Assembly (NCBI GenBank): GCA_018057705.1
Contig: JAGPDF010000011.1
Coordinates: forward strand, 21,985-85,984
Direction of reading: 5' to 3'
From: Thermoanaerobaculia bacterium
GTDB lineage: Bacteria; Acidobacteriota; Thermoanaerobaculia; Multivoradales; JAGPDF01
Length of the DNA stretch: 64,000 bases
The notes beneath the pieces are model-generated. The model made no database searches. It worked only from the letters and a program-made list of their open reading frames with translations, and was not told the DNA's origin. Shown piece by piece: positions 29,305 through 63,391 of this stretch (the first letter of the stretch is position 1; the number at the start of each line of letters is the position of its first letter). The position numbers and the translations under genes were made by a program.

Positions 29305-29405
29305 TTCTTCTCCTTGATTCCTTCAGTCGAGTCGGCCTCATTGCCGCTGCGACCTTTTCCGCCATTATAGCACAGATGTCAACAGGGCTGTCGTGCGCTG
29401 GCCGT

Positions 29406-29474
29406 CAGTAATACTGACTGTCAGGCATCTGGTGGTGAGGGGGTTGTTTATTGGGCTGACAGTGGGCAATACTG
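29406..29474. promoter_or_regulatory. Divergent promoter/operator region with three related dyads
   Basis: CAGTAaTACTG (29406-29416) and CTGACtGTCAG (29414-29424) are palindromes. CAGTgggcaaTACTG (29460-29474) carries the same CAGT/TACTG arms with a wider spacer. All lie between divergent genes. Confidence 0.45.
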
Positions 29475-29480
29475 TTTCGG

Positions 29481-30330: not shown

Positions 30331-30450
30331 GTTCTTCTCGAAAGGGGTCGCTCGACCCGACCTGGCCTAGGAACGCTTGCATTCCCTGAAGGCGCTACTT
30401 CGAGAGGCTTCCAGGGGTCGGAGGGTTGCCAACGAGTAAGGCGAGCTCCG

Positions 30451-31515: not shown

Positions 31516-31719
31516 ACGTCGATCTTAGCCCGGACAGTTCCCTCTCCCCGCCTGGCGCGGCGGTCGGCGGCTCTCTCCGTCCGTCGCAAGATGACCGCTC
31601 GCCGGCGGGGTGGCCAGGTCGGCTTGATAGGATTGTCGCCGCAGAGCTCACCTCGAGCCTTCGCAGGACCGTTCGTACCGGCCCCGGGCCGGGCGCGGCG
31701 CAAGAAAGGGGCCTCACCC

Positions 31720-32880: not shown

Positions 32881-32895
32881 GGCCCTCGCTGCTGC

Positions 32896-33594: not shown

Positions 33595-33598
33595 GTAG

Positions 33599-35038
33599 TC
33601 ACCTTACCGAGGGAAATCCTCGAACGACATGGTAGGTCTTGACCGCGTGGCTGTCAGTCATGCCAGAGACATAGTCCAGAAGCAACTGGAGTCTGAATAT
33701 CGGCTCGAGGTCCGGTTCAGCATCGACGCAATCGAGAAATGCTAAGGCGTGCTTTCGCGAAAGTAGCTCGACCAATCTCGATTCGAGTGCAAACTCGGAG
33801 GGCTTCTTTCCGGATCTCTTCCTTTCCAGCAAGGCCCGAAAATCCATTGAGGCCAGGCTCAGCAACGGACTTAGTGCGTCGAGTAGCCCCGTTACAATCT
33901 GGAATCCGCTGAGTTCAACTCCTACAGCTTCTGCAGACACAAAGATGTTCTTCCGCGCAAATTGCTTGAGGCCGTCCAGCGCTGCGCTAGATTCCTTGTC
34001 CAGATCTAAGAGCGGGTGTTGAAGCTCTCCATCTAGAATGGCGTCGTGCTGTTCACAGAAGATCTCGGCGGCTCGATTGACGAGGTGTCGCGTCAAATTC
34101 GTCCGAAAAACTACGAATTCTGCGTACTTGCAATGGCGCTTCTTGCTATCAAGCTTCTTCCAGTGCTTTCGCCTAGTGGTTCGATCCAGCGCCTTCTTGA
34201 AGGCTTCTTCGCTGACGATCCTCTTCTCGAGTGCGTCCTCGATGTCCGAGAGGCAGTAGGCGATGTCGTCCGCGGCCTCCATTAGGAAGACGAGTGGATG
34301 CCGTTGGCCTGGAAGTCCTGCATTGGCATCCCACTTGAGACCAAGTCTTTTCCAAATCTGCTCTAGAGTCTTCGACTCTGATTCGAAGTACCCGACTTTT
34401 CCCCGAAATCCAAGTCTATTCTTCGTTGTCGCTGGCGTTGGCGTTAGGTACTTCACCATGGAAGCCAGAAGCGACGCCGTTAGGTTCAGGCCGGAGGAAT
34501 CGCTCAGCCACTGGAGGCGGGATACGATTCGAAAGCCCTGGGCATTCCCATCAAAATACTTGAAGCCCGGAAGAAATCGTGCCACATGCTCCTGAGCTAC
34601 ACCTTGTTTCTTCCAAGAGCTACAGAGACTCTGCTCATTGTCGGCAATCCACTTCTGAATCGCATATTCGCCGAGGTGTCCAAATGGTGGGTTCCCGATG
34701 TCATGCAGCAAACAGGCGTTCGAGACCGTCTTTGTGAAAGGAAGGCGGAGATTCTCTTCGGCTGTTCCGCTAGAGACCAAGTTGTCAAAGACCTTACCCG
34801 CGATCAACTCGCCAAACATCGCGACCTCTAGCGTGTGCGTGAGCCTCGTCCGGACTGCGGCGTTCGTTTCTAGTGAGAAGACCTGCGCTTTGGTTTGAAG
34901 GCGGCGAAACGCGGTACATGTGACTACGCGCGCGTGGTCACTTAGTGTTTCTTCGATGAGATTTCTGCCTGCCTGAGTAGACTGACGGATTCGATCGGGC
35001 GAGAGAAAGTACCTCGAGCGCTCGCTCTTCTCCGCCAT
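33599..35038 (-). CDS. dgt: Deoxyguanosinetriphosphate triphosphohydrolase (Dgt type, HD domain)
   Basis: It aligns by eye with E. coli Dgt over the whole length. Shared blocks are 'AFRRLQTKAQVF..NAAVRTRLTHTLEV', 'LLHDIGNPPFGH', 'FDGNAQGFR', 'MEAADDIAYCLSDIEDALEKRI' and 'DYVSGMTDSHA'. ATG at 35038 matches the E. coli N-terminal length. The track ORF extends to GTG at 35095. Confidence 0.85.
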   Translation of the reverse strand: MAEKSERSRYFLSPDRIRQSTQAGRNLIEETLSDHARVVTCTAFRRLQTKAQVFSLETNAAVRTRLTHTLEVAMFGELIAGKVFDNLVSSGTAEENLRLPFTKTVSNACLLHDIGNPPFGHLGEYAIQKWIADNEQSLCSSWKKQGVAQEHVARFLPGFKYFDGNAQGFRIVSRLQWLSDSSGLNLTASLLASMVKYLTPTPATTKNRLGFRGKVGYFESESKTLEQIWKRLGLKWDANAGLPGQRHPLVFLMEAADDIAYCLSDIEDALEKRIVSEEAFKKALDRTTRRKHWKKLDSKKRHCKYAEFVVFRTNLTRHLVNRAAEIFCEQHDAILDGELQHPLLDLDKESSAALDGLKQFARKNIFVSAEAVGVELSGFQIVTGLLDALSPLLSLASMDFRALLERKRSGKKPSEFALESRLVELLSRKHALAFLDCVDAEPDLEPIFRLQLLLDYVSGMTDSHAVKTYHVVRGFPSVR

Positions 35039-35396
35039 GACCTGACTGCGCTCTGGTCTCTTAGTGGGGCTCTTCCTGGCGCGCCTCGTGGCCACTTGAA
35101 GCGCGATTATACGCCTTTGCGGCCTCCGTCTTCGGAGGGATACGTGGCTCTTGGATCTAGTCCACTCCAGCCTCGGCGCCGAAGGGGCCTCTCCTCTTCG
35201 GAGGCTGGCTCCCAGCAGGCGTTGATGACGCTGGTGTGAGCGCCCCTGCCCAGGCGACAGTGGCTCTTCATTGTAGGCCGAGGGCGAGGAACTCGCAGGA
35301 TTGAAGGCGCGAATCGCCCGATGCAGTCAACGATGCTCCGCCACTCCAGTCGAGCCCGCCAAGGACTGATGGCGAGGGTTCCAGCTTCCGCTCGCT

Positions 35397-35768
35397 TCAG
35401 TAGTTCGATTCGTCGAGGAGCTCGCGCTCCTCTTCGTCGGAGAACGGGGCGTTCTTGTCGAGCGAGGCGCCGATCCAGGCGAGGAACTTCTCTTCGCTCT
35501 TGCAGACCTTGAAGGCGAGGATCTCGGGGAGCTCGTAGCTGTGGAGCTCCTGGATCGCAGCCTGGACGGCGGCGTACTCGCTCTCCAGGGTCTTCACGAT
35601 GAGCAGGAACTCGGCGTCGCGGCAGATCTTGCCCTGCCAGCGGTAGACCGAGCGCACCCCGGTGACGATATTGACGCACGACGCATGGCGGCGCGCCACC
35701 AGCTCGGAAGCGATCAGGTTGGCCTGTTCTTCGGTGCCTACGGTTGTGACGACGACGAAAGCTCCCAC
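35397..35768 (-). CDS. cutA: Divalent-cation tolerance protein CutA
   Basis: 'VVVTTVGTEEQANLIASELVARRHASCVNI..SVYRWQGKI' and 'ELHSYELPEI'. Confidence 0.85.
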   Translation of the reverse strand: MGAFVVVTTVGTEEQANLIASELVARRHASCVNIVTGVRSVYRWQGKICRDAEFLLIVKTLESEYAAVQAAIQELHSYELPEILAFKVCKSEEKFLAWIGASLDKNAPFSDEEERELLDESNY

Positions 35769-35843
35769 GGCCGCGAAAGCTACGCCCCTTCCTCCGGCAA
35801 GTCATGCCGCGATGCGGCAAGGCGGTGTCCGCGAGGCGTCGCC

Positions 35844-36443
35844 TCAGCGCCAGCGTTCGCTTTCGAGGTCGTAGGCGAGGCAGCCGATCTTGCCGGTCCG
35901 GCCGAAGACGCGCGCCGCCGAGAGGTGGCGCCGTCCGTCGGTGACGTAGACCGTGCCCGGCGTCGCCGTTCCGATCGGGCTGAACGAGGCGATGTCGGAG
36001 CGATTGAAGCGCACCGGGTCGTCGAGCCGATCGAGCCGGCGGCGAGGATCGCCGGGGTCGCGCGGCGCTCGGCCCGGCGGAAAACCGAAGTGGATCTGGC
36101 GGCCGAGATGGGCGAGCCGGACGCGCGGCATCACCGGCGGGTCGTCGCCCGAGAGAATGTCGGCGGAGAGCACTCCGTCGCCATCGCCGTCGCGGTAGAG
36201 CCCCCAGGTCACCGTGCCGTCGGCGTCGACCCGGAACTTCAATCCGACGTTGGCGTCGTGGCGGATCGCATAGGCGCGCGCAACGTGAAACGCGGAGGCG
36301 ACTTCGGCTGCGGCGAGCTCCACCCGGAGCCCGGCGGCCAGCTGGAGAAGTGGGGGAATGCCCAGGGTGAGCACCAGGGAAGAGATCGCCATGGCAATCA
36401 GGAGCTCGATCAACTGATAACCCCTCTCGGCTGTCCGCATCAA
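35844..36443 (-). CDS. GspH/FimT-family pseudopilin (type IV pilin-like N-terminus)
   Basis: The prepilin motif is 'ERGYQLIELLIAMAISSLVL'. The body is GspH-like ('FHVARAYAIRHDANVGLKF'). Confidence 0.7.
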   Translation of the reverse strand: MMRTAERGYQLIELLIAMAISSLVLTLGIPPLLQLAAGLRVELAAAEVASAFHVARAYAIRHDANVGLKFRVDADGTVTWGLYRDGDGDGVLSADILSGDDPPVMPRVRLAHLGRQIHFGFPPGRAPRDPGDPRRRLDRLDDPVRFNRSDIASFSPIGTATPGTVYVTDGRRHLSAARVFGRTGKIGCLAYDLESERWR

Positions 36444-36467
36444 AGTCGCCTCCGCCCGGGCTCGAAA

Positions 36468-36851
36468 TCAGCCGTTGGCCGCGGGCTTCCCGGCCGGCGC
36501 GTCGGACTTTTCGGACTTGGCGGCGGCCTTCGGCGCGCGCGGCAGCTTCACCTTCTCGACGAGCGTGGTCGGCCCGCTGAGCGCCACGTACGGCTTCAGC
36601 TGCTCGTAGGTCGATTCACCGATGCCGCGCACCAGCATCAGGTCGTCGAGCGACTTCCAGGGGCCGTTCTTCTCGCGCTGCTCGACGAGACGCGCCGCGA
36701 CCGCGGGGCCGATGCGCGGCAGGAGCTGGAACTCGGCGGCGGTCGCCGTGTTGACGTTGACGGTCTTGGCTTCGCCGGCGAGCGCCGGAGCGGCGGCCAG
36801 GAGGCAGAGGACGAGTGCGGCGGCGGCGAGGGTGCGCTGGTGGATTCGCAT
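36468..36851 (-). CDS. comEA: ComEA-family helix-hairpin-helix DNA-binding protein
   Basis: Signal peptide, then 'VNVNTATAAEFQLLPRIGPAVAARLVEQRE..GPWKSLDDLMLVRGIGESTYEQLK'. Confidence 0.8.
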   Translation of the reverse strand: MRIHQRTLAAAALVLCLLAAAPALAGEAKTVNVNTATAAEFQLLPRIGPAVAARLVEQREKNGPWKSLDDLMLVRGIGESTYEQLKPYVALSGPTTLVEKVKLPRAPKAAAKSEKSDAPAGKPAANG

Positions 36852-37299
36852 GTTCGCTTTCCTTTCTTGCGGCGTTGGTCAGGCGTTCAGTGATGGCGGC
36901 GCCGGAGCTCTTCCGGCGTCGTCGCTGCGGACTGCCGACTGCACGGCTGCGGTACTGCGGTGTTGCGGTCCGGCCGACTGCATTCCTGGATGGCGGAGCG
37001 GCTCGTGGGGTCTCTGTCTTCCTGGCGCCTCCTCTCCGGTTGAACTGCGCTGCGCCAGACGACAGGTACACGCTCCCTGCCAGAGCGGTGAACATCGCGC
37101 AAATCCAGCATTTGCAATCACTTGGGATGAAAACTCCGGCGCCACCGCGGGCCACTGCCGGCAAGGGGACGGGCGCCTGTCGGGCGCGGCGCGGGGGCGA
37201 GAGGGGCGAGCACCCCGAAACAGCGCACTCCCATCCGGCCGTCAAAGGATCTGGACGGAAGCGCAATCCCTTGCGGCGATCGGATAGTCTTCAGGGCTG

Positions 37300-38004
37300 A
37301 TGTCGACTGCGCCCCGCTCCACCGCCCGCGAGTACCTGGAAGCCCTGCTCATCGCGGCGGTCTTCCTGTTGTTCACGAACACCTTCGTGATCAAGACCTT
37401 CTTCATCCCGAGCGGATCGATGGAGGACACGCTTCTCGTGGGCGACCATCTGTTCGTGAACCGCTTCATTTTCGGACCGACAATGGGGAAGGTCGAGCAG
37501 GCGATCCTGCCGCTGCGCGTACCCCGGCGCGGCGACATCGTCGTTTTCCGCTCCCCTGAGCGCCCGAATATCGATCTCGTGAAGCGGCTGATCGGCCTGC
37601 CGGGCGACACCATCCAGGTCGTCGACAAGCAGCTCTTCGTCAACGGCAAGAAGGTCGTGGACGACGCCTACGTCGAGCACAAGGATCCCAGGATCTTCCA
37701 GAACCGGCCGTACATGTCCGAGCAGCAGCGCCTGCGCGACAACTTCGGACCGGTGACCGTTCCGGCCGCGAGTTACTTCTGCATGGGTGACAACCGCGAC
37801 CTGTCCTACGACTCCCGGTTCTGGGGCGTGGTGCCCGAGCACTACATCAAGGGCCGCGCCTTCCTCATCTACTGGTCGTTCGGGGGCGGAACTTCGGACG
37901 GCACCTGGCGTGGCGCCGGCGCGAAGCTGCGCGAGCTCGCCAACACCGCCCTCGGGTTCCTGACCAAGACCCGATGGACGCGCTCGTTCCACCTGCCGAG
38001 CTGA
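37300..38004 (+). CDS. lepB: Signal peptidase I
   Basis: 'IPSGSMEDTL', 'VKRLIGLPGD' and 'GDNRDLSYDSRFWG'. Confidence 0.9.
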   Translation: MSTAPRSTAREYLEALLIAAVFLLFTNTFVIKTFFIPSGSMEDTLLVGDHLFVNRFIFGPTMGKVEQAILPLRVPRRGDIVVFRSPERPNIDLVKRLIGLPGDTIQVVDKQLFVNGKKVVDDAYVEHKDPRIFQNRPYMSEQQRLRDNFGPVTVPAASYFCMGDNRDLSYDSRFWGVVPEHYIKGRAFLIYWSFGGGTSDGTWRGAGAKLRELANTALGFLTKTRWTRSFHLPS

Positions 38005-50976: not shown

Positions 50977-51066
<90 letters not shown>

Positions 51067-51085
51067 GGTAGAGTTACTGCTTGCT

Positions 51086-51175
<90 letters not shown>

Positions 51176-51738: not shown

Positions 51739-51891
51739 ACCCGACAATTCTAGCGCAAGAGCGCCGCGGCGCGCTCGCCGCCCGTCCGGCGCCCGCCTGG
51801 CGCCCGGAGGACCGGCAGACCGTGGCACGCCGCCAAAAGGCACATCCTCGGCTTTACAGCGCCGCCCGCGGCCATTACGATGCGATCGACC

Positions 51892-52020
51892 GAGCCGGAA
51901 GCGAAGGGTTCAGGTCCTGTGCATCGAACGGTTCCGAACCTCGTCAGGCCCGGAAGGGAGCAGCGATAAGGTCCTCGCTTCGGGTGCCGCAGGAGTGCCG
52001 GAACCCTTCGCCTCCGGCTC
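51892..52020 (+). ncRNA. ffs: Signal recognition particle RNA (small/4.5S-like)
   Basis: The conserved domain IV core is GTCAGGCCCGGAAGGGAGCAGC. The closing helix pairs GAGCCGGAAGCGAAGGGTTC with GAACCCTTCGCCTCCGGCTC. The position upstream of dnaX is typical. The ends are approximate. Confidence 0.75.
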
Positions 52021-52031
52021 GACACAATTCC

Positions 52032-53882
52032 ATGGCCTACCAGGTTCTCGCCCGCAAGTGGCGCCCGCAGGACTTCGCGTCGCTCATCGGCCAACAGGCC
52101 GTCGTGACGGCGCTTTCGAACGCGCTGCGCGAGGGCCGCATCGCGCAGGCGTATCTGTTCTCCGGCATCCGCGGCGTCGGCAAGACGACCGCCGCGCGCG
52201 TCTTCGCGAAGGCGCTCAACTGCGAGCGTGGCACCGCGAACGGGCCGTGCAACGAGTGCCCGACATGCCAGCAGATCACCAAGGGCGCCGACATGGACGT
52301 GCTCGAGATCGACGCCGCGACCTACTCGAAAGTCGAGCAGGTGCGCGAGCTCGCCGAGAGCCTGAAGTACGGGCCGGCGCGCGATCGCTACAAGGTCGTC
52401 GTGCTCGACGAAGTTCACCGCCTGTCGCGCCAGGCCTTCGACGCGCTGCTGAAGATCGTCGAAGAACCGCCGCCGCGCCTGGTCTTCATCTTCGCCACCA
52501 CCGAGATCGAAGCCGTGCCGGCGACGATCCTCTCGCGCTGCCAGGAGTTCCACTTCCGCCGGGTCTCGAACGTCGAGGCGGTCGCACACCTGCGCCACAT
52601 CTGCACCGCGGAGAAGATCGAGGCGAGCGACGCGGCGCTCGCACTGCTCGCCCGCGCCGGCGAGGGTAGCGTCCGTGACTGCGTCGCGCTGCTCGACCAG
52701 CTCGCCACCTTCGGCAACGGCGTGGTCGACGAGCAGGAGGCCATCCGCCTGCTCGGCGGCATCGACCTGGCGCTTTTCCAGAGAGCCCTCGTCGGCATCC
52801 TCGCCGGCGACACACTGGCCGTTTCGCGCCTCGCCGTGGAGGTCGAAGAGAACGGCTGGGACCCGCGTACGGTGCACGCCCACTTCCTCTCCTTCTGTCG
52901 CGACGCCCTGCATCTGGCGCTGGGCGCGGGCGGCGCTGGCGCCGATACCGGGGAGGCGGTGGCTCTCCCCGCCGAAGAGCGCAAGGCGCTCTCCGAAATC
53001 GCCCGGCGCGCCGGGTACGAGAATCTCCTGCGTCTCCTGCACCATCTCTTGGGCAGCGAGAGCGCGATCCGCCGCAGCGAGGCGGGGGCGCTGGCACTGG
53101 AGATCGCCTGGCTGCGGGCGGCCGAGTTGCCGCGCCTGGTGGCAATCGAGCGCTATCTGGCCGGCGGCGTCGCGGCGCCAGCGTCGGCGCCGACGGCGAC
53201 GCCGCGGGCCGCCGCGACATCGGCACCGCCCGCCCACGCACCGGAGCCGACGCCCCGCAGGGCCGAACCCGCCACCGCGGCGCGCTCCGCGCCCAGCCCC
53301 CCGAGTCCGCCGCTCGCCCCGCTCGCTCCGGCAAGGTCGCCGGCGACGACGGCGGTGCCCGCAGACGAGACCCCCGACGCCGCGCGCCGCGGGCCGGTCG
53401 CGCAGGAGAAGGGGCTGCCTGCGAACGCAATCCTGCGGCCCTTCCTCGAGCAGTTGGTGCTCCGCCGCCCGACTCTCGCCGCGCTGCTCGAGGACCCCGC
53501 GGCCCTCGCCTGGGACGAAACCCTGCGCACGCTGGTGGTCCACCCGGCGTCGGATTTCGCCGCCTCCTCCCTCAACCGCAACCGCGAGCTCCTCTGCGCC
53601 GCCGCCGTCGCGGCGTTCGGCGAGGGTGTCCAGGTTCGCTTCGCGCCGCCGGAATCGCGCACCGCTTCTGCCCACGCCGGGCCGGCAGCCGGCGCCGACG
53701 CTGACGCCGCGCGGCACGCCGAAGAGCGCAAGATCCAGGTCGTCGACCATCCGCGGGTGCAGGCGGTGCTCGAGATCTTCGGCGGCGCCGTCGCCCGGGT
53801 CGAGGCGCCGACACCCCCGGCGCCTTCGGCCGAAGAGCTGCCGGACGACGAAACTTCCACTTCCGAGGATCCCTTTCGATGA
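52032..53882 (+). CDS. dnaX: DNA polymerase III subunits gamma/tau
   Basis: ATG at 52032. '[16 protein letters not shown]', '[16 protein letters not shown]', 'CNECPTCQ' and 'VVVLDEVH'. Confidence 0.92.
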
Positions 53883-54172
53883 ACATCCAGAAGCTCATGA
53901 AGCAGGCGCAACAGATGCAGGAGAAGATGCAGCGCGAGCTCGCCGAGCTCGTCGTCGAGGCGACCGCCGGCGGCGGCATGGTGACCGTCCAGATGAGTGG
54001 CCACAAACACCTGCTGGCGGTGAAGATCGACCCCGAGGTCATGGACCCCGCCGACCCGTCGATGCTGCAGGACCTGGTGCTCGCGGCGGTGAACGAGGCG
54101 ACACGCAAGGTGGACGAGGCGATGCAATCGAAGCTCGGCGCCTTCTCCGGCGGCCTGCCGGGGATGATGTAG
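53879..54172 (+). CDS. ybaB: Nucleoid-associated protein YbaB/EbfC
   Basis: '[30 protein letters not shown]'. The dnaX-ybaB-recR order is conserved. Confidence 0.88.
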
Positions 54173-54221
54173 CGGCCGGGCGGCGCACCCCGCCGCTGGC
54201 TCGTTCGCTCCCGTCCTCCCC

Positions 54222-54815
54222 ATGCCCGATCCCCTTCAGACGCTGATCTCGGAGCTCGCCCGGTTGCCCGGGATCGGACCGAAGACCGCCACGCGCCTGG
54301 CGCACCATCTCCTGCGCGTGCCGCTCGAGCAGGCGCGCCGGCTCGCCGACGCGGTGATCGAGGTCAAGGAGAAGCTCTTCCACTGCTCGCTCTGCAACGC
54401 CATCACCGCCGAGGAGCCTTGCCGCATCTGCAGCGATCCGACCCGCGACCGCACGCGCATCTGCGTGGTCGAGGAGCCGTTCAACATTCAGCCGCTCGAA
54501 CGCACGAGCGAATTCCACGGTCTCTACCACGTGCTCCTGGGCAGCCTCTCGCCCCAGCGCGGAATCGGTCCGTCGGAGCTGCGCATCGACGGACTCCTCG
54601 CCCGGCTGGATGGCCCGCCCCGGATCGCCGAGGTGATCGTGGCGACCAACCCCAATGTCGAAGGCGAGGCCACGGCGCTCTACCTCGCGCGCCTCCTCAA
54701 AGCGCGGGTGGAACGGGTCTCGCGTCTCGCTTTCGGGATGCCGGTCGGCGGGGACATCGAGTACACCGACGAAGTCACCCTCGGCCGCTCCCTCGCCGGC
54801 CGGCGTGACATCTAG
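54222..54815 (+). CDS. recR: Recombination protein RecR
   Basis: 'LARLPGIGPKTATRLA', the zinc finger 'CSLCNAIT..CRICSD' and the Toprim 'ICVVEEP'. Confidence 0.92.
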   Translation: MPDPLQTLISELARLPGIGPKTATRLAHHLLRVPLEQARRLADAVIEVKEKLFHCSLCNAITAEEPCRICSDPTRDRTRICVVEEPFNIQPLERTSEFHGLYHVLLGSLSPQRGIGPSELRIDGLLARLDGPPRIAEVIVATNPNVEGEATALYLARLLKARVERVSRLAFGMPVGGDIEYTDEVTLGRSLAGRRDI

Positions 54816-56135
54816 ATGGAACCCGTGCTTCCTCGAGGAGACCTCCTGCCGGAGCTCCTCACTCCGCTTCCCGGCCCGGTGAGCCGCGAGCTTTCGCGCA
54901 CGCTTGCCGGATGCGAAGCGCCGGGGATCAACACCCTGGGCGGTGCCGACGAGCCCGCCCTGGTGTGGCGGGCGGCGTGTGGCGCCAACGTTCTCGACGT
55001 CGACGGCAACCGCTTCCTCGACCTCACCTCGGGCTTCGGCGCTGCGGCCATCGGTCACCGCCATCCGCGCGTCGTCGCGGAGATCACCCGCCAGGCGGGC
55101 GATCTCCTGCACGGCCTCGGCGATGTCGCCGCACACCCGGCCCGGATCGACCTCGCCGCCCGCCTCTGCGCCCTCGCACCGGTCGATTCGCCGCGCGTCC
55201 ACTTCGCCGTCTCCGGCGCCGATGCGGTCGAAATCGCCTGGAAGACCGCACTTCTCGCCTCCGGCAGGTCTCGCCTCCTCGCCTTCGATCCCGGCTACCA
55301 CGGCCTCTCCTTCGGTGCGCTCGCCGCGACTTCCCGCCGCGAGTTCCGCGCGCCGTTCCTCGACCAGCTCTCCTCGCACGTCGACCGGCTACCGTTCGCC
55401 TGTCCGCTCGCGCTGGTAGCGGAACATCTCGACTCGTCCACGGCCGCGGTGATCGTCGAGCCGATCGTGGGACGGGAGGGGGTTCTCGTGCCGCCCGAAG
55501 GCTGGCTCTCCGGACTCGCGCGGCTTTGCCGCGAGGCCGGCGCCGCCTTGATCCTCGACGAGATCCTCACCGGTTTCGGTCGCACCGGCCGCGACTTCGC
55601 CTGCGATCACGAAGCCGTGCGCCCGGATCTCCTGTGCTGCGGCAAGGCTCTCGGCGGTGGCTTGCCGATTGCGGCGGTCGTCGGCCGGGCCGACCTGATG
55701 GAGGCCTGGCGCCGCGGCGGCGAGGCCCTCCACACCGGGACCTTCGTCGCCCATCCGCTCGCCTGCGCCGCAGCGCTCGCCACCCTCGACGTCATCGCGC
55801 AAGAGCAGCTCGCCCGTCGCGCCGTCGAGATCGGCCGGCGCATCGCCGCGGCGCTCGCGAGTGCGCTGCCGGCCCGCTCCTGCCTGCGCGGTCGCGGCGC
55901 CCTGTGGGGTTTGGAGCTGCCCGACGCCGAGAGCGCCGCGAGGCTCGTCGACCGGCTCCGCCAGCGTGGCCTGCTCGCGCTGCGCGGCGGCCCTTCGGGC
56001 CGGGTCGTGGAGCTCCTGCCGCCGCTCGTCATCACCCCTGCCCAGCTCGACTTCGCGCTCGCCGTTCTCGGCGAGGCGCTCGCGGAGGTTTCGGAGCCAG
56101 CGGAGCCGGCGGCCACCGAGGCTACCGAGCGATGA
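54816..56135 (+). CDS. Class III (aspartate aminotransferase fold type I) aminotransferase
   Basis: 'DVDGNRFLDLTSGFGAAAIGH', 'LILDEILTGFGRTG', 'CCGKALGGG'. Confidence 0.8.
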   Translation: MEPVLPRGDLLPELLTPLPGPVSRELSRTLAGCEAPGINTLGGADEPALVWRAACGANVLDVDGNRFLDLTSGFGAAAIGHRHPRVVAEITRQAGDLLHGLGDVAAHPARIDLAARLCALAPVDSPRVHFAVSGADAVEIAWKTALLASGRSRLLAFDPGYHGLSFGALAATSRREFRAPFLDQLSSHVDRLPFACPLALVAEHLDSSTAAVIVEPIVGREGVLVPPEGWLSGLARLCREAGAALILDEILTGFGRTGRDFACDHEAVRPDLLCCGKALGGGLPIAAVVGRADLMEAWRRGGEALHTGTFVAHPLACAAALATLDVIAQEQLARRAVEIGRRIAAALASALPARSCLRGRGALWGLELPDAESAARLVDRLRQRGLLALRGGPSGRVVELLPPLVITPAQLDFALAVLGEALAEVSEPAEPAATEATER

Positions 56136-56698
56136 CGCCCGCCTCTCTCAAGTTCGCTTTCATCGGCAGCCACGGCGTCGGCAAGACGACCCTCTGCTAC
56201 GGCCTCGCCGCCCGCCTGAAGCGCCGCGACGTGGCGCTCGAGATCGTCCACGAGGTGGCGCGGCGCTGCCCGCTGCCGATCAACTCCGGGACCACCGCCG
56301 AGGCACAGCGCTGGATCCTGCACACCCAGATCGCCGAGGAGATCCTCGCCTCGGCGCGTTACCCGGTGGTGCTCTGCGACCGCAGCGTCCTCGACAACTA
56401 CGTCTACTTCCTGCTCGCCGCCGGCTCCGACCCGGCGCTCGACCGCCTGGTCTCCGACTGGCTCGCCGGCTACGACCTGCTGATCCAGGTACCGATCCTC
56501 GAAGCACCCCGGGCCGACGGCATCCGCGCCGCCGACCCGAACTTCCAGCGCGCCGTCGACCTCCGCCTGCGCGCCGAGGTGGCGGCGCGCGGAATCGCGA
56601 CCCTCGACCTCGAGGCGGCGCGCTCCGCCGATTGGCTCGAAGAGGTCGAAGCCCACGCCCTGCGCCGGCTCCGCCCCGCCCAGCTCGAGCTGCTCTAG
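56132..56698 (+). CDS. P-loop ATPase (AAA_28/NadR-like small ATPase)
   Basis: ATG at 56132 overlaps the upstream TGA. The Walker A motif is 'GSHGVGKTT' and the Walker B-like motif is 'VVLCDRS'. Confidence 0.6.
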   Translation: MTPASLKFAFIGSHGVGKTTLCYGLAARLKRRDVALEIVHEVARRCPLPINSGTTAEAQRWILHTQIAEEILASARYPVVLCDRSVLDNYVYFLLAAGSDPALDRLVSDWLAGYDLLIQVPILEAPRADGIRAADPNFQRAVDLRLRAEVAARGIATLDLEAARSADWLEEVEAHALRRLRPAQLELL

Positions 56699-57483
56699 CG
56701 TTCGATCGGCGTCGCCGGCCGCATCGGGCCGAGCGCCGCGTCGCCGGGATAGAGGACACGCTCGAGAAAGAGGCCCGAAGGCGGCGCGGTCGTCTCCGCC
56801 GGCTGGAACTGCGCCGGCTTGGACGGATCGAGCAGTCCTTCGAGCGCCGCGAGGGTCAGGGTGCCACCGCCCACCTCGACCAGCGCGCCGACGATCCGCC
56901 GCACCATCTTCCACAGGAAGTGCGACGCCACGACGCGCACCAGGATGAGCTCGCCCGCGACCTCCACCTCGCAGCGCTCCACGACCACGATGGTCGAAGT
57001 CTGCTCGAGCGGCTTCTCGCAGAAGCGGGCGAAATCGTGCCGTCCGGCGAGGAGCTGGGCCGCGGCGCGCATCGCACCGACATCGAGCGGCCGGCGCACC
57101 CACCAGACGAAGCGCTTGGCGAGCGCCGTCCGCCGCCGTGAGATCTGGTAGAGGTAGCTGCGCGAGGTCGCGGTGTGGCGGGCGTGAAAGCGGTCGCCGG
57201 CCGGCTCGATCGACAGCAGGTGGATGTCGGCCGGGAGCGCTTCGTTGACGGCGCGCAAGATCTCTTCCCGGCGCAGCTTCCCGGCAGTCTTCACGTGCGC
57301 CACCTGCGCCAGGGCGTGCACGCCGGCGTCGGTCCGGCCCGAGCCTGCGAGCTCCACCTTCTCTCCCGCGGCCGCTTCGAAGGCCTGCCGCACCTCGCCG
57401 GCGACGGTGCGGGCGTTCTTCTGCTCCTGCCACCCGCGGTAGCGGGTTCCTTCGTATTCGAGGGTCAGACGATAGGTGGGCAT
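56695..57483 (-). CDS. truA: tRNA pseudouridine(38-40) synthase
   Basis: 'YRLTLEYEGTRYRGWQ', 'GSGRTDAGVHA', 'FHARH'. Confidence 0.9.
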   Translation of the reverse strand: MPTYRLTLEYEGTRYRGWQEQKNARTVAGEVRQAFEAAAGEKVELAGSGRTDAGVHALAQVAHVKTAGKLRREEILRAVNEALPADIHLLSIEPAGDRFHARHTATSRSYLYQISRRRTALAKRFVWWVRRPLDVGAMRAAAQLLAGRHDFARFCEKPLEQTSTIVVVERCEVEVAGELILVRVVASHFLWKMVRRIVGALVEVGGGTLTLAALEGLLDPSKPAQFQPAETTAPPSGLFLERVLYPGDAALGPMRPATPIER

Positions 57484-57506
57484 TTGGACGCTAGAATAGC
57501 CGTACT

Positions 57507-58493
57507 TTGGGACTCGCTTCGCGGCTCGCTCAGATTCCGCTCTTCGCGCACTTCCGCGCGCCGGAGATCGAAGCGCTCGCCGCCTGCGCCGTCGGGCGTG
57601 CTTATGCCGCCCAGGCGGGCATCCTCCGCCAGGGTGAGCCGACGTTGGATGTCTACGTCGTGGATCGCGGCCTGGTCGACATCCAGCGCACCACGCCCTA
57701 CGGCCAGTTCACCATCGCGCAGCTGGGCAGCGGCCAGCTCTTCGGCGAGACCAGCTTCGTCGACTCGAGCACGCGCTCGGGCGACGCGGTCGCGCACACC
57801 GAGACGGCGCTCGTCGCGCTGCAATCGGCGCCGACGCGCGACCTCATCGCACGCGACAAGCGCGTCGCGGTGGCGCTCTACTGGGCGTTCTGGAAAAGCC
57901 TCTCGGCGAAGCTGCGCAGCACCAACGAGCAGCTCGGCCGCTTCTTCTCGCAGGGTCCCAGATCCGCCGTCGAGAAGCCCCCGCTCTCGAAGTCGCTGAC
58001 CGGCGAGTTCCGGCTCGACATCGCGGCCAAGCGCGATCTGTTCGCCGAACAGAAACTCTCGCCGCTCGAAATCAACTTCCTGACCTCGCTCTCCAAGGAG
58101 CGCAAGCTCAAAGGCGGCCAGATCGTCTTTCACGAGGGTGATCCGGGTGACGCCATGTACGTCGTGCTCGAGGGGCGGATCCTGATCAGCAAGTTCATCC
58201 CCGGCGCCGGCGAAGAGGCCCTGGCGTTTCTCGAACGCGGCGACTACTTCGGCGAGATGGCCTTGATCGACAGCGCGCCGCGCTCGGCGCAGGCGCGGGC
58301 CCACGACGGCGGCGCTGTGGTGCTGGCGATTCCGGCCGAAGTAGTGGCGGGGATCCTCGACGTCCGCAAAGTCTCGTCGCTGCCGCTGCTCAAGATCCTC
58401 TGTGGCCTGGTCGCGAAGCGCCTGCGCGAGGTCGACGACAAGATCGTCGGCTGGTACATCCTCTCCGGCGGCGAGTCGAATCAGGTCGGCTGA
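57507..58493 (+). CDS. Tandem cyclic-nucleotide-binding-domain protein (no output domain)
   Basis: It has two cNMP-binding modules ('GQLFGETSFVDSSTRSGDAVA' and 'GDYFGEMALIDSAPRSAQARA'). TTG start. No HTH is recognisable. Confidence 0.7.
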   Translation: MGLASRLAQIPLFAHFRAPEIEALAACAVGRAYAAQAGILRQGEPTLDVYVVDRGLVDIQRTTPYGQFTIAQLGSGQLFGETSFVDSSTRSGDAVAHTETALVALQSAPTRDLIARDKRVAVALYWAFWKSLSAKLRSTNEQLGRFFSQGPRSAVEKPPLSKSLTGEFRLDIAAKRDLFAEQKLSPLEINFLTSLSKERKLKGGQIVFHEGDPGDAMYVVLEGRILISKFIPGAGEEALAFLERGDYFGEMALIDSAPRSAQARAHDGGAVVLAIPAEVVAGILDVRKVSSLPLLKILCGLVAKRLREVDDKIVGWYILSGGESNQVG

Positions 58494-59644
58494 CTCGCGG
58501 CGCGCGCCAGGACCTTTCTCGCCACGCCGGTGAGCGGCAAGCCGCCGGCCGCCTCGCGGCCCCACCAGTGAAGGTCCGCGGTCGCCGCGCCGTCGCTCGC
58601 GCGAGCGCTACCGCCGACCACACCGGGCTCGGCCCCCGCTCCCTCAGCGAGCGTATCGCTCTCGACCCCAGCACCCTCCCCGGCCGGCGCATACACCGCT
58701 CGCCGCACCTCGATCGCGAAGCTGCGCGTGGTGATGGCGTGGCGCAGCCGGGTGACCTCCGCGCCGAGCGTCCAGAAGCCGCCGAAGGCTGCCGCCAGCT
58801 GCGCTTCGGGCGCCGCCGGCCCGCCCAGGTCGACCGCCGGAAAATCCCACAGCCCGGCGAGCTGCCCGGCGGACGGGCTCCGCCTGAAGAGCAGAACCCT
58901 TCCCCTCACCTCAACGAAGGCCACGAGCTGGCGGACGCGTTCAGCAGCGGGGCGCGGCTCGCTCGCCGGAAAGCTCTCCGCCGCTGCGAGCGCGCGGGCC
59001 TGACAACCTTCGGCCAGCGGGCAGACGGTGCAGCGCGGGGACCGCGGCGTGCAGACGGTCGCACCGAGCTCCATCAGGGCCTGGTTGCTGTCGCCTGGGC
59101 GGGCCGGGTCGAGAAAGCCCGCCGCGATAGCGAGCAGGGCGCTGCGGTCGCTCCGGCGCTTCGCCCCGGCGCTCCTGGCGGCGTAGCGGCAGACGACGCG
59201 CTCGACGTTGCCGTCGAGCACCGGAACCACTTCGGCGAAGGCGATGCTGGCGATCGCCGCCGCGGTGTAGGGCCCGATCCCCGGCAGGAGCTCGAGCTCG
59301 CGGGCCGTGCGGGGAAGGGCGCCGCCTTCGGCGACGATCGTCCTCGCCGCCGCCAGCAGCGCGCGGCAGCGCCGGTAGTATCCAAGCCCCGACCAGAGGG
59401 CGAGGACCTCGGCCTCGTCGGCCTCCGCCAGACTCGCGACGTCGGGAAAGCGCGCCAGGAAGCGCAGGTAGTAGGGCCTCGCGGTCTCGACCCGGGTCTG
59501 CTGGAGCATGATCTCTGAAATCCAGACGCCGTAGGGGTCGACGACCGGAAAACTGGACGCGCCCGGCGGGCTGTCCTCCCGGCGCCAGGGGAGGGCCCGC
59601 TTGTGGCGGTCGAACCAGGCCAGGAGTGCCTCACCGGGCTGCAT
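58481..59644 (-). CDS. mutY: A/G-specific adenine glycosylase
   Basis: ATG at 59644. 'LPWRR', 'YGVWISEIMLQQTRV', 'GLGYYRR', 'LPGIGPYTAAAI' and the 4Fe-4S 'C..PRC..CP' are present, plus a NUDIX-like C-terminus. Confidence 0.88.
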   Translation of the reverse strand: MQPGEALLAWFDRHKRALPWRREDSPPGASSFPVVDPYGVWISEIMLQQTRVETARPYYLRFLARFPDVASLAEADEAEVLALWSGLGYYRRCRALLAAARTIVAEGGALPRTARELELLPGIGPYTAAAIASIAFAEVVPVLDGNVERVVCRYAARSAGAKRRSDRSALLAIAAGFLDPARPGDSNQALMELGATVCTPRSPRCTVCPLAEGCQARALAAAESFPASEPRPAAERVRQLVAFVEVRGRVLLFRRSPSAGQLAGLWDFPAVDLGGPAAPEAQLAAAFGGFWTLGAEVTRLRHAITTRSFAIEVRRAVYAPAGEGAGVESDTLAEGAGAEPGVVGGSARASDGAATADLHWWGREAAGGLPLTGVARKVLARAASQPT

Positions 59645-59718
59645 GTTTGGCAGTGTATCCGCCCGGCATCGGCCGCTATTGGGGATAAATTCGCGAAAAC
59701 GGCCAAATCGACCGGCCG

Positions 59719-59933
59719 CCAGAAAGGAATCGGCCCCGGTCGAAACCGGGGCCGAAGAAAAGAACCGCATGCGGGAGGTTCCGAGTTGGTTGGCTCTTAA
59801 GTGGCTATACCCCTGTTACTTAGGGGATCTAGGCGGGGCTTGAAGAGGGGTGGAGATCAACCGGATCTCGAAACTTCTGGGTGGGGTGATATTGGGGAAG
59901 TGGAACCTCCTCGCGCACGGTGATGACTCTGCT
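59719..59933 (-). ncRNA. Candidate sigma-54-dependent small RNA (C-rich), or structured leader of mutY
   Basis: It is bounded by a canonical -24/-12 promoter (predicted TSS ~59933). The other boundary is an 8-bp GC hairpin GGCCCCGG-uuucga-CCGGGGCC (59732-59753) followed by GAUUCCUUUCU. No plausible ORF is present. There are five CCCC runs. Confidence 0.4.
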
Positions 59934-59944
59934 CTAACTGGTTA

Positions 59945-59959
59945 GCAAAACGGGTGCCA
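59945..59959 (-). promoter_or_regulatory. Sigma-54 (-24/-12) promoter
   Basis: The minus strand reads TGGCACccgttTTGC(t), with exact GG-N10-GC spacing. It lies in a 490-nt intergenic region. Confidence 0.65.
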
Positions 59960-60136
59960 GTCCCCGCTTATTCCTGATCCCCCCTCCTTGCCCCAAGGGG
60001 CAGCGTTCTGGCGCGCGCGTCACCTTCGAAGTCCGGCGCCCACCGGCAGCGGCGCCGCGCAGGCCGCTCCCAGGCCGCCGCGAGCCGCCCGGCCGCGCAG
60101 AACGCGCTATCTTCCGGGGTTGGAGAATCGTCACCA

Positions 60137-61930
60137 ATGCGAAGGCTCTTCTTTCTTCTGCTCCTCGTCACCCTGGTCGGTCTCGTCGTCGCTGGCGGCA
60201 GCTACCTCTTGCTGCAGCGCGCAGAGGCGCCCGGCTGGGGCAGCGACAAGATCCTCACTCTCACCCTCGACCGGCCGCTGCGCGAACAGGCCCTCGAGCC
60301 CACCTTGCCGTTCCTGGATCCCGAGGAGCAGGCCTCGCTCGCCCTGCTTTACCGCGGATTTCTCGCCGCCCGCACCGATCCGTCCGTGGTCGGCGTCGCG
60401 CTCTACATTCAGGACGCCTCCTTCGGCCTGGCCAAGGCGCAGGAGTTTCGCCGCCAGATCGCCGAGCTCGACAAGGCCGGCAAGCCCGTCCACTGCTTTC
60501 TCGAGACGGCCGGCGAAGGCGGCAACGGGACGCTCGAGTACTACCTCGCCTCGGCCTGCACGTCGCTCGCCCTTGCCCCGGCGGGCGAGATCAACCTGCT
60601 TGGCCTCTACGCTGACGGTCTCTTCCTGCGTGGCGGGCTCGAGAAGCTCCGCATCGAGCCGAGCTTCCTGACCGCCGGCGAGTTCAAGAGCGCCGCCGAG
60701 ATCTTCACCGAAGTCCGCCATTCGCCGGCCGCGAAGGTCGCGCTCGACGCCCTGCTCGACAGCTTCTTCAGCCAGATCGTCGACGGGATCGCGGCCGCGC
60801 GCGAACGCGATGCCGAGACGGTCCGGGCCTGGGTGGACGCCGCGCCCGTCTCTGCCGCGGAGGCCCTCGAGAAGGGCCTGGTCGACGAGCTCGCCTACCC
60901 GGACGAGTTCCGCGACGGCCTCGACGCGCTCGGCGACGGCGCCGGGGAGGATGCCGAGCGCGTCGATTTCCTCGACTACGCGCGCGGTGTGAGCCGCCAC
61001 CTCGCGGGCGGCAAGCGCATCGCCGTGCTCTTCGCCCAGGGCGCCATCGTGCGCGGCGGCAGCGGGGGGGACTCGTTCGCGAGCGAGTCCTTCCTGGGCT
61101 CCGACGACATGGCCGGGGAGCTGCGCGCGCTCGCCGACGACGACTCGGTGGTGGCGGTCGTGCTGCGCATCGACAGCCCGGGCGGCTCGGCCCTCGCCTC
61201 TGACCTGATCCTGCGCGAGGTCGAGCAGCTGCGCGCCAGGAAACCGGTCGTCGCCTCGATGTCCGACGTCGCCGCCTCGGGCGGTTATTACATCGCCGCC
61301 CGCGCCACCCGGATCGTCGCCGAGCCGGCGACGATCACCGGCTCGATCGGCGTCGTGACGGGCAAGCTCGCGACCGGCCGCTTTCAGGAGGAGCTTCTGG
61401 GCATCACCCACGATCCCCTGCAGCGCGGCGCCAACGCCGACCTCTACTCCGGTCTCAAGCCGTTCGACGAGCGCCAGACCGCGGTGCTGCGGCGCCGCGT
61501 GAACGAGATCTACGGCCGCTTCCTCGACCATGTCGCGGAGGGCCGCAAACTCTCGCGCGCCGCCGTCGAGGCGGTCGCCGAAGGACGGGTCTGGACCGGC
61601 GCGGACGCCCTGGCCGTCGGCCTCGTCGACGAGCTGGGCGGGATCGACCGCGCCATCGCTCTGGCTCGCGAGCAGGCGGAGGTGCCGGAGTCCGACCGTC
61701 TGCCGCTGGTCTTCCTGCCCAAGCCGCCGAGCTTCTGGGAGCTCTTCTCCACCGACTCCGGCCCCGGCCTCGAGGCCCGCCTGCTGGCTCTCGTCGAGGC
61801 CCGCCTGGCCGGTGAGCTGGCCGGCCGCCTGGGGGCGCGCTACGGCGCGGCGCTGCCGCCCCCGGTCGCCCGCCCCCGCCTCGAGCTCGAGATCGACGGC
61901 GGCTGGCAGGCGCTCGCCCAGGGACTATGA
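60137..61930 (+). CDS. sppA: Signal peptide peptidase SppA (67K type, two S49 domains)
   Basis: An N-terminal TM is followed by 'SMSDVAASGGYYIA' and 'GSIGV'. The size is 597 aa. Confidence 0.88.
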   Translation: MRRLFFLLLLVTLVGLVVAGGSYLLLQRAEAPGWGSDKILTLTLDRPLREQALEPTLPFLDPEEQASLALLYRGFLAARTDPSVVGVALYIQDASFGLAKAQEFRRQIAELDKAGKPVHCFLETAGEGGNGTLEYYLASACTSLALAPAGEINLLGLYADGLFLRGGLEKLRIEPSFLTAGEFKSAAEIFTEVRHSPAAKVALDALLDSFFSQIVDGIAAARERDAETVRAWVDAAPVSAAEALEKGLVDELAYPDEFRDGLDALGDGAGEDAERVDFLDYARGVSRHLAGGKRIAVLFAQGAIVRGGSGGDSFASESFLGSDDMAGELRALADDDSVVAVVLRIDSPGGSALASDLILREVEQLRARKPVVASMSDVAASGGYYIAARATRIVAEPATITGSIGVVTGKLATGRFQEELLGITHDPLQRGANADLYSGLKPFDERQTAVLRRRVNEIYGRFLDHVAEGRKLSRAAVEAVAEGRVWTGADALAVGLVDELGGIDRAIALAREQAEVPESDRLPLVFLPKPPSFWELFSTDSGPGLEARLLALVEARLAGELAGRLGARYGAALPPPVARPRLELEIDGGWQALAQGL

Positions 61931-62005
61931 GGCCGCGGAACCCGTCTCGCTACCTGCGATATAGTCCAGCTCCCAGTTCCGACGGAGCTCTGCGCCCCGA
62001 AAAAG

Positions 62006-62026
62006 ATTTCCGCAAACTGTGGAAAA
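62006..62026. promoter_or_regulatory. DnaA-box-like sites upstream of dnaA
   Basis: ATTTCCGCA (62006-62014) and TGTGGAAAA (62018-62026) are present. The reverse complement of the second, TTTTCCACA, matches TTATCCACA at 8/9. Confidence 0.4.
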
Positions 62027-62050
62027 CCTGTTGATTTTCAAGCCCCCTCC

Positions 62051-63391
62051 GTGCCTTCACCCTCCTCCCCCCCCGACAACGGCTACTGGCCCCGCTTGCA
62101 GGAACGCCTGCGCGCCATCCTCGAGCCCGAAGAGTTCGGCACCTGGTTCGCGCCGCTCGTCCTCAAGAGCGAAGGCGAAACCGGAGTCGTCCTGGTCGCT
62201 CCCAACGAACGCTTCGTCCACACTCTCGAAGAGAGCTTTCGCGAAACGCTCGATCGCGAGTCCGGACTGCTGTTCGATGAGTTCTTCTCGGTCTCCGTGG
62301 TCGCGGAGGAGGTCGCGCGCAGCGGCCCTTCCGGCGGCGCGGGGCTCGGCTCCCCGGGGCCTTCGGTCCCGACCGGAGACCGGCTCAACCCGAAGTACAC
62401 CTTCGAGACCTTCGTCGTCGGCAACTCGAACCAGTTCGCGCATGCCGCAGCCCGGGCGGTCGCCGAGAGCCCCGCGCACAGCTACAACCCGCTTTTCCTC
62501 TACGGCGGCGTCGGTCTCGGCAAGACCCATCTCCTGCACGCCATCGGGCACCAGGTCCTGCGCCGCCGGCCGGAGCTCAAGGTCCTCTATTTCACCGCCG
62601 AACAGTTCGTCAATCAGCTGATCAACTCGCTGCGCTTCAAGTCGATGCACTCCTTCCGCGAGCGCTATCGCTCGATCGACGTCCTGCTGGTGGACGACAT
62701 CCAGTTCCTGGCCAACAAGGAGCGCACGCAGGAGGAGTTCTTCCACACTTTCAACACCCTCTACACCAGTCAGCGCCAGATCATCCTCTCCTCCGACTCG
62801 TCACCGCGGAACATCCCGGCGATCGAGGAGCGCCTGCGGTCGCGTTTCGAGTGGGGCCTGATCGCCGACATCCAGGCGCCGGATCTCGAGACCAAGGTGG
62901 CGATCCTGCGCCGCAAGGCCGATCAGGACGGCGTCGCCCTGCCGGACGACGTCGCGCTGTTCATCGCCTATCAGGTGAAATCGAACGTCCGCGAGCTCGA
63001 AGGAATGCTCAACCGGGTGGTCGCCTTCTCCTCGTTGACCGCGAAACCCCTGTCGCTCGAGCTCGCCAAGGAGACGCTCAAGGACATCCTCCCCGAGGAG
63101 GGCCGGCGCGCCACCGCCGCCGACATCATCAAGTTCGTCGCCCGGCACTACGGGCTCAAGGTCAGCGAGATCAAGTCGAAGTCGAACTCGAAGCAGATCG
63201 CCTTCCCGCGCCAGGTGGCGATGTTCCTCTGCAAGGAGCTGACCGACCTCTCCTACCCGGAGATCGGCCGCCAGTTCAACGACAAGCATCATTCGACGGT
63301 GATGTACTCGGTCGACAAGATCCTCAAGTTGAGGGCGACCGACGCCGAGCTCGAGCGGACTCTCGACGGTATGACCAAGCACCTCGGCTGA
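62051..63391 (+). CDS. dnaA: Chromosomal replication initiator protein DnaA
   Basis: 'NPKYTFETFVVGNSNQFA', 'LFLYGGVGLGKTHLL', 'VLLVDDIQF', 'SNVRELEG' and 'IAFPRQVAMFLCKELT'. GTG start. Confidence 0.95.
   Translation: MPSPSSPPDNGYWPRLQERLRAILEPEEFGTWFAPLVLKSEGETGVVLVAPNERFVHTLEESFRETLDRESGLLFDEFFSVSVVAEEVARSGPSGGAGLGSPGPSVPTGDRLNPKYTFETFVVGNSNQFAHAAARAVAESPAHSYNPLFLYGGVGLGKTHLLHAIGHQVLRRRPELKVLYFTAEQFVNQLINSLRFKSMHSFRERYRSIDVLLVDDIQFLANKERTQEEFFHTFNTLYTSQRQIILSSDSSPRNIPAIEERLRSRFEWGLIADIQAPDLETKVAILRRKADQDGVALPDDVALFIAYQVKSNVRELEGMLNRVVAFSSLTAKPLSLELAKETLKDILPEEGRRATAADIIKFVARHYGLKVSEIKSKSNSKQIAFPRQVAMFLCKELTDLSYPEIGRQFNDKHHSTVMYSVDKILKLRATDAELERTLDGMTKHLG

Follow-up and report, generated by a model that had tools for sequence, protein, structure and literature searches.

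Several kinds of bacterial small RNA (sRNA) are comparable with the locus described here. Qrr1–5 of Vibrio are transcribed with sigma-54 and LuxO, end at an intrinsic terminator, occur as paralogous copies and act by base-pairing at ribosome-binding regions. GlmY/GlmZ (sigma-54 with GlrR) and the sigma-54-dependent Pxr of Myxococcus have three-stem architectures and also show paralogy. RsaE/RoxS of Firmicutes and CcsR of Rhodobacter possess several unpaired C-rich stretches able to pair with G-rich Shine–Dalgarno regions. CrcZ, CrcY and CrcX of Pseudomonas and Azotobacter are RpoN-dependent paralogues that carry repeated short single-stranded motifs on a structured RNA (PMC6292655). The locus considered here lies in a 64,000-nucleotide (nt) stretch of the genome of a Thermoanaerobaculia bacterium (Acidobacteriota; contig JAGPDF010000011.1 of assembly GCA_018057705.1, positions 21,985 to 85,984), which was analysed at its full length and is called the window below. 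On its minus strand, between the divergent genes mutY and sppA, the window very probably contains an independent sRNA gene, with a sigma-54 promoter, a three-way-junction RNA fold and a terminator of its own.

The RNA shares with Qrr a sigma-54 promoter, an intrinsic terminator and the presence of multiple paralogous copies. It is, however, about twice as long and forms a three-way junction rather than a row of hairpins; its copies are arranged in tandem and not dispersed, no activator gene is adjacent and the phylum is different. RpoN-type promoters, paralogues and repeated displayed single-stranded motifs are common to the RNA and CrcZ/CrcY/CrcX, but the motifs of the latter are A-rich (AANAANAA) and bind Hfq–Crc, whereas those of the new RNA are C-rich CCNNCC; moreover, crcZ adjoins the activator gene cbrB (sigma-54 with CbrB), while the new RNA has no syntenic activator. 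GlmY/GlmZ and Pxr are similar in having an enhancer-dependent sRNA gene, three stems and paralogues, although GlmY acts by protein mimicry on RapZ. Several unpaired C-rich stretches are a feature of RsaE/RoxS and CcsR as well; unlike the new RNA, these depend on sigma-70/sigma-A or RpoHI/HII, are shorter and bear their C-runs in hairpin loops. The new RNA matches none of these families in Rfam. A search of Rfam 15 over the region, a check proposed in the initial annotation of this DNA, which was made from the sequence alone, gave no family match on either strand even at E ≤ 10; the best sub-threshold matches (14–17 bits against thresholds of 33–44) were terminator look-alikes. At the gathering score, no sRNA family, Acido-1 and Acido-Lenti-1 included, was found anywhere in the window or in six other members of the family, and no description of such an RNA was found in the published literature on small RNA or sigma-54 in Acidobacteria and on noncoding RNA in Thermoanaerobaculia. 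The sRNA represents an undescribed family, present in neither Rfam 15 nor the literature searched, while its kind, the enhancer-dependent sRNA, is already known.

The initial annotation had proposed a sigma-54 element with exact GG-N10-GC spacing in an intergenic region of about 490 nt. Such an element, TGGCACCCGTTTTGC, is present on the minus strand (59959..59945) with exactly this spacing and with 15 of 15 specified promoter bases matched, and the gap between the starts of mutY (59644) and sppA (60137) measures 492 nt. The 15-mer pattern TGGCAC-N5-TTGC has two occurrences in the 64 kb, as against 0.06 expected. Transcription would start near 59933, a position placed 12 nt 3′ of the −12 GC, and the end of the transcript is placed at the U tract of the terminator. 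The resulting RNA of about 214 nt has a fold energy of −77.2 kcal/mol (z = −5.7 against shuffled sequences). The G+C content of its core is 56%, compared with about 70% in the flanks and the genome, in line with the lower value noted earlier for the interval.

In the species-representative genome collection, the relatives of the MutY encoded in the window are at most about 50–54% identical to it; the closest belong to metagenome-assembled genomes of Thermoanaerobaculia (Acidobacteriota). A homologous element is located upstream of mutY in seven of the closest loci, two of which hold it twice. The order of its parts is shared and comprises the −24/−12 promoter, GAGGnGGUUCC, a GAGAUC/GAUCUC hairpin, CCCCU-loop-ACAGGGGUA, GCCAACC, GGAACCUCCCC and the terminator. 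A covariance model of 163 positions was built from ten copies found by mutY synteny and run on loci from three DNA-pattern scans; all scan counts are lower bounds. The first scan (genome collection, promoter included in the pattern), together with the earlier mutY loci, yielded at least 98 copies; a promoter-free pattern scan yielded at least 78 copies in at least 39 further genome loci, and soil and sediment metagenome contigs (≥1 kb) contained at least 79. The family total is at least 255 copies in at least 153 loci, and the family is larger than this count. Among the matches listed, 72 loci contain one copy, 60 contain two and 21 contain three in tandem.

As to distribution, the positive titled genome loci among the matches listed are assigned to Thermoanaerobaculia, Thermoanaerobaculaceae, unclassified Acidobacteriota, ‘Candidatus Multivoradales’ or ‘Holophagales’, with one weak covariance-model match in a further bacterium; among the same matches, no pattern match from a phylum other than Acidobacteriota scored with the model. 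The sRNA is not universal in Thermoanaerobaculia, since relatives L002, L024, L033 and L059 have the dnaA–mutY neighbourhood without the RNA. The pattern CCCCT..CAGGGGTA..CCTCCCCCC recurs in Flavonifractor and Oscillospiraceae (L201, L203–L205, L207, L214 and L215) and in many human-gut contigs, where it falls on the antisense strand of a protein-coding gene, at the conserved 3′ end, and gives no covariance-model or Rfam match. These Clostridia and human-gut matches were rejected as family members, being the antisense strand of a conserved protein-coding gene.

Since the pattern of the first scan contained the promoter, conservation of the latter was checked in copies gathered independently of it. 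GGCA-N6-TTGC is present in all ten copies found solely by mutY synteny, and seven of the eight additional copies that the model found and the pattern missed carry a sigma-54 element. In the promoter-free collection, GG-N10-GC with at least 9 of 11 consensus positions occurs in 74 of the 74 copies having enough upstream sequence, with the −12 GC 8–25 nt before the model start; control stretches taken from farther upstream scored 5–7 of 11 at best, apart from one that reached 9. An element at the same distance was found in 97 of 98 first-scan copies and in 69 of 72 metagenomic copies (at least 9 of 11 positions). Over all copies of the first and promoter-free sets, the −12 GC lies 8–31 nt before the covariance-model start. 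The family promoter consensus is nGGCAcgg..gTTGCA.

When the 98 sequences were folded individually by partition function and the pairs mapped onto the alignment, only three helices exceeded 25%: P1 (about 12 pairs), P2 (6–7 pairs) and P3 (5 pairs). P1 closes a three-way junction; its 5′ strand is G-rich and its 3′ strand C-rich. In the 98-copy alignment, the 24 pairs are 90.8% paired and 18 of them change on both sides (101 cells). None of 500 shuffles matched any of the five measures used, and sliding the 3′ partners by 1–3 columns lowered pairing to 41–64%. The independent 78-copy set gives the same fold picture, both alignments having been fitted to the model. Covariation is seen in 11 of the 12 pairs of P1 and in 6 of the 7 of P2. 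The four C–G pairs of P3 are nearly invariant across the 98 and 78 copies, and ACAGGGGUA is conserved; such near-invariance is uninformative on pairing and suggests sequence-specific recognition. P1 is rich in G·U cells (e.g. UG 46 versus UA 30), which would be C·A mismatches on the other strand, indicating that the minus strand is the transcribed one. The length of the RNA varies across the family by insertions and deletions that are not multiples of three, in keeping with a noncoding RNA that lacks a conserved reading frame. A fourth helix, CUCUU/AAGAG, which would enclose P3, was predicted for the window alone and was not recovered across the family.

The structure sketched in the initial annotation stands in part. 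The CCCCU-N7-AGGGG hairpin, which is P3, and the terminator hairpin are retained, and all five CCCC runs are present as stated. The ‘5-bp hairpin’ CCGCAUGCGG before CUUUUCUU cannot form, as its loop would be 2 nt; its bases constitute the 3′ strand of the long-range helix P1 and pair with CCGUGCG...GAGGAGGUUCC near the 5′ end. The placement of the C-runs in hairpin loops likewise needs revision, because four of the five are situated in single-stranded joiners and the remaining run forms the 5′ side of the P3 stem.

The three joiners, J1/2, J2/3 and J3/1, have mean lengths of 30, 24 and 28 nt and contain 9–15% G and 35–40% C. In the family, J1/2 has 9% G and 40% C and carries the recurrent motifs CCAACC, CCAGCC, CCCACC and CCUACC; J2/3 (10% G) carries CCCUCU(U), with CCCUC or CCUCU in 43–46 of 98 copies; J3/1 (39% A) carries AGCCAC and GCCAACC, with CCAACC in 65 of 98 copies. 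There are about 4.9 CCN(1–2)CC motifs per RNA. The CCCUCU(U) motif resembles in sequence the anti-Shine–Dalgarno end of 16S rRNA.

The perfect 8-bp GC hairpin GGCCCCGG/CCGGGGCC of the initial annotation is real and its stem is longer than supposed: it extends to 11 pairs (59755..59730), AUUCCUUUCU follows directly and a terminator scan reports it. The hairpin is about 180 nt downstream of the sigma-54 promoter. Among the closest relatives of the window the stem covaries (GGCCCCGG to GGCCCGGG). In the family as a whole, 194 of 235 copies (about 83%) have a hairpin with a T tract no more than 150 nt from the core, the median stem energy being −24 kcal/mol, and most of the remaining copies have GC hairpins without a clear T tract.

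Typically, dnaN and dnaA come first, followed in many loci by sppA; one to three RNA genes and then mutY complete the order, and dnaN, dnaA and sppA are transcribed away from the RNA genes. Among the genome loci examined, mutY is downstream of the RNA in 57 of 67, and dnaA is found within the 8-kb block in 39 of 67. Within tandem arrays, every unit is provided with a separate promoter and, as a rule, with a separate terminator. Five loci are without mutY: in three, the RNA is behind an ABC1-kinase gene and faces a convergent GH57/DUF3536 gene, and in two it is behind ligD and faces a convergent DEAD-box helicase gene.

These arrangements bear on the alternative offered in the initial annotation, a sigma-54-controlled attenuated leader of mutY. 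A cis-acting leader of this type, in which read-through of a conditional terminator would continue into mutY, fits the upstream, co-directional position of the RNA and the imperfect U tract in the window. The terminators are, however, strong in most copies, the tandem units are autonomous and the mutY-less loci would leave such a leader without its gene. Furthermore, relatives in Thermoanaerobaculia have TACACT, TAGAAT or TATACT 6–8 nt before the mutY start and no Shine–Dalgarno sequence; hence, mutY appears to be transcribed from a promoter of its own as a leaderless mRNA, and translation of a read-through transcript would be poor. A leader function is disfavoured and considered very unlikely. 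Two GGCGGAT repeats are also seen upstream of mutY in relatives; of these, the window retains the one nearer the promoter, together with a degenerate TTTGGCCG (59707..59700).

The location beside dnaA–dnaN invites another explanation, in which transcription as such would help or hinder opening of a nearby replication origin and the RNA product would have no role. The proximity is conserved, and DnaA boxes are present between dnaA and the RNA in several relatives, the box of the window being TTTTCCACA at 62018..62026. Against this, compensatory changes and G·U pairs show that the RNA structure is under selection, in the window sppA stands between the RNA and dnaA, and copies occur at two other genomic sites. 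A role at the level of DNA or transcription is judged to be extremely unlikely. The sigma-54-promoted, terminator-bounded noncoding RNA gene proposed initially is backed by at least 255 homologues, a retained promoter, covarying helices, terminators and autonomous tandem copies. Judged from sequence comparison, the gene, its promoter type, fold, terminator and autonomy from mutY can, taken together, be accepted with high confidence.

Table 1. Features of the sRNA locus and of associated genes in the window.
Feature	Position	Strand	Basis or remark
Sigma-54 promoter, −24 TGGCAC and −12 TTGC (TGGCACccgttTTGC)	59945..59959	−	Exact consensus match
Predicted primary transcript, about 213–214 nt	59721..59933	−	Sequence and fold; both ends predicted
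Covariance-model core match, 116.7 bits, E = 4e-24	59761..59927	−	Sole copy in the 64-kb window
P1 5′ strand (CACCGUGCGCGAGGAGGUUCC), G-rich	59902..59922	−	Pairs with 59782..59764
J1/2, single-stranded C/A-rich joiner (ACUUCCCCAAUAUCACCCCACCCAGAAGUUUC)	59870..59901	−	No consistent pairing in partition-function folds
P2 hairpin GAGAUC-CGGUU-GAUCUC	59853..59869	−	Covariation, e.g. GAGGCC/GGCCUC
J2/3, single-stranded joiner with anti-Shine–Dalgarno-like CCCCUCUU	59827..59852	−	Joiner composition
P3 hairpin CCCCU-AAGUAAC-AGGGG, most conserved element	59810..59826	−	Near-invariant C–G pairs
J3/1, single-stranded A/C-rich joiner with AGCCAC and GCCAACC	59783..59809	−	Motif counts
P1 3′ strand (GGAACCUCCCGCAUGCGGU), C-rich	59764..59782	−	Pairing with 59902..59922; formerly read as a 5-bp hairpin, reassigned
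Intrinsic terminator: 11-bp stem (9 G–C pairs), 4-nt loop, then AUUCCUUUCU	59721..59755	−	Terminator scan
mutY −10-like TACACT, 7 nt before ATG (59644); outside the RNA	59657..59652	−	Conserved block in relatives
mutY (HhH-GPD, EndIII 4Fe-4S and NUDIX_4 domains)	start ATG 59644	−	Pfam
sppA (Peptidase_S49)	60137..61930	+	Domain match
dnaA	62051..63391	+	Follows sppA
NtrC-type activator (Response_reg, Sigma54_activat and HTH_8; GAFTGA near 5711)	4989..7916	−	Domain matches

In the proposed mechanism, sigma-54 RNA polymerase would bind the −24/−12 element and an enhancer-binding ATPase, responding to some signal, would activate the sRNA promoter. Transcription would then yield an RNA of about 210 nt and stop at the hairpin and U tract of the gene's own terminator. 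The RNA is predicted to fold into the three-way junction, in which P1, P2 and P3 would hold three single strands of 25–30 nt open; these exposed, almost G-free C-rich strands would be the working surface of the molecule. Most likely, the strands would pair in trans with G-rich ribosome-binding regions and alter how several mRNAs are translated or how stable they are, the sRNA being a repressor or modulator of these mRNAs in the manner of other C-rich-seed sRNAs. Tandem paralogues may raise the dose or add inputs. Action of the enhancer-dependent sRNA in trans is probable on the present comparisons. For base-pairing as opposed to protein titration the chances are about even; the likeness of CCCUCU(U) and the CC-rich motifs to the anti-Shine–Dalgarno sequence is the reason for favouring base-pairing. 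An independent sRNA gene whose C-rich strands base-pair in trans is the best explanation overall and is held with slightly more confidence than doubt.

The main rival reading, which is less likely, is that the RNA may be a decoy that titrates an RNA-binding protein by means of its roughly five CCNNCC motifs, the invariant P3 or both, much as CrcZ/CrcY titrate Hfq–Crc and CsrB titrates CsrA. P3 is invariant in sequence and not merely paired, which suggests specific recognition, and the repeated motif is short and degenerate and is displayed in G-free single strands on a scaffold. Like CrcZ/CrcY, with their six A-rich Hfq motifs (PMC6292655), the tandem paralogues are under sigma-54 control. On the other hand, no partner gene is conserved beside the RNA in the genome loci examined, and CCCUCU(U) looks like an anti-Shine–Dalgarno seed. 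It also counts against a decoy that we know of no bacterial protein that binds CCNNCC. A wider version of this idea seems unlikely; in it, the RNA would be the titrating component of a novel system of global post-transcriptional control in Acidobacteriota, a tandemly amplified, sigma-54-controlled sponge sequestering a C-rich-RNA-binding protein on its roughly five CCNNCC repeats and the invariant CCCC/GGGG hairpin. Candidates for this protein are one of the KH type and even Rho, whose loading sites are YC-rich RNA poor in G. If true, the sponge would be a functional counterpart of CsrB–CsrA or CrcZ–Hfq with a new motif and a new partner.

Several observations weigh against an independent sRNA that base-pairs in trans. 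The C-rich motifs are short, repeated and degenerate, and suit a sponge for a protein no less well than a base-pairing seed. The one local target candidate, the ribosome-binding site of sppA (GGGGUUGGAG in the window), complements CCAACC, but the complementarity is not kept in 14 relatives; sppA was rejected as a target and the match regarded as a coincidence. The target material consisted of the 64 kb of genome and 8-kb fragments of relatives. The very strong mutY synteny might stem from a link in cis and not just from inheritance. The U tract in the window (AUUCCUUUCU) is interrupted, so that some read-through towards mutY is possible. Finally, no conserved upstream activator site was found in the window's own lineage.

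An NtrC-type activator with a Sigma54_activat domain is encoded in this genome, which implies that sigma-54 transcription operates in the host; the rpoN gene itself is outside the window. The only other consensus sigma-54 promoter of the window, TGGCACCGTCCTTGC (4917..4903, minus strand), follows this activator gene. Downstream of it, starting at about 4847, is a gene whose product has a signal peptide and a YceI-like domain. The activator gene, the promoter at 4917..4903 and the YceI-like gene form a sigma-54 unit separate from the sRNA. No activator gene is in conserved synteny with the sRNA in the genome loci examined.

In multi-copy lineages, a dyad, TGTAGAAATGCC-N15-GCATTTGTACGA, precedes the first copy, 152–177 nt before the model start; it is present in 56 of 235 copies, the carriers including L082, L090, L115, L123 and L127. 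An A/T-richer block, CTCAAAC...TTTCAT, is found in these lineages at about −75 to −45. In sequence, the layout of the dyad and the A/T-richer block resembles that of an activator site, a bend and a promoter. The dyad is also directly upstream of a small divergent gene, the product of which starts MSEFRENRxVGWKEYLDLPELG, and is a candidate either for the activator site of the sRNA or for an operator of that divergent gene. Automatic gene starts, both for the divergent gene and in the ranking of targets within the window, are unreliable owing to long spurious open reading frames in DNA of 70% G+C. Second tandem copies share other blocks, namely GTGAGGGGAA and GGAAT located exactly 14 nt before GG. 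Across the lineage of the window, the spacer between the promoter and sppA is about 55–190 nt long. Its sole conserved block, GAAGATAGCGCG, about 30 nt before the sppA start, was rejected as an activator site and is better read as the −10 element of sppA. Sites of the TGTC-N10-GACA type were not seen upstream of the sRNA. The centre of a perfect 14-bp palindrome, TGCCCCTTGGGGCA (60002..59989), lies some 62 nt upstream of where the sRNA is predicted to start; the palindrome is common to the window and relative L113 only, and other close relatives have different GC-rich inverted repeats there.

Acidobacteriota are among the most abundant soil bacteria and, to our knowledge, almost no regulatory RNAs have been described for them. 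The sRNA family gives a defined starting point for the study of sigma-54 signalling and of post-transcriptional control in Thermoanaerobaculia. The near-universal sigma-54 promoter makes the sRNA usable as a reporter for finding the activator and the sensed signal, and the repeated CCNNCC is a concrete hypothesis for a new RNA–protein or RNA–mRNA recognition code. The alignment of at least 255 copies is ready as an Rfam family and would improve the annotation of many metagenome-assembled genomes.

The sRNA gene is part of an origin-proximal cluster (51822..63391) containing dnaX (+), recR (+), a gene for an AAA_28 ATPase (+), mutY (−), the sRNA (−), sppA (+) and dnaA (+). A gene encoding a protein with cyclic-nucleotide-binding domains (57507..58493, +) is convergent with mutY and overlaps its end. 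The GC skew of the window has no clear switch. The Rfam scan of the window also identified tmRNA (155.7 bits), small SRP RNA (65.7 bits) and two tRNAs at 26191..26542 (+), 51908..52007 (+) and 50980..51175 (−). A tmRNA gene is a classic integration site. Right after the tmRNA gene of the window, the G+C content drops to 0.60–0.64 over about 26000..38000 (lowest in 32001..36000), compared with about 0.70 elsewhere; this stretch may be a genomic island.

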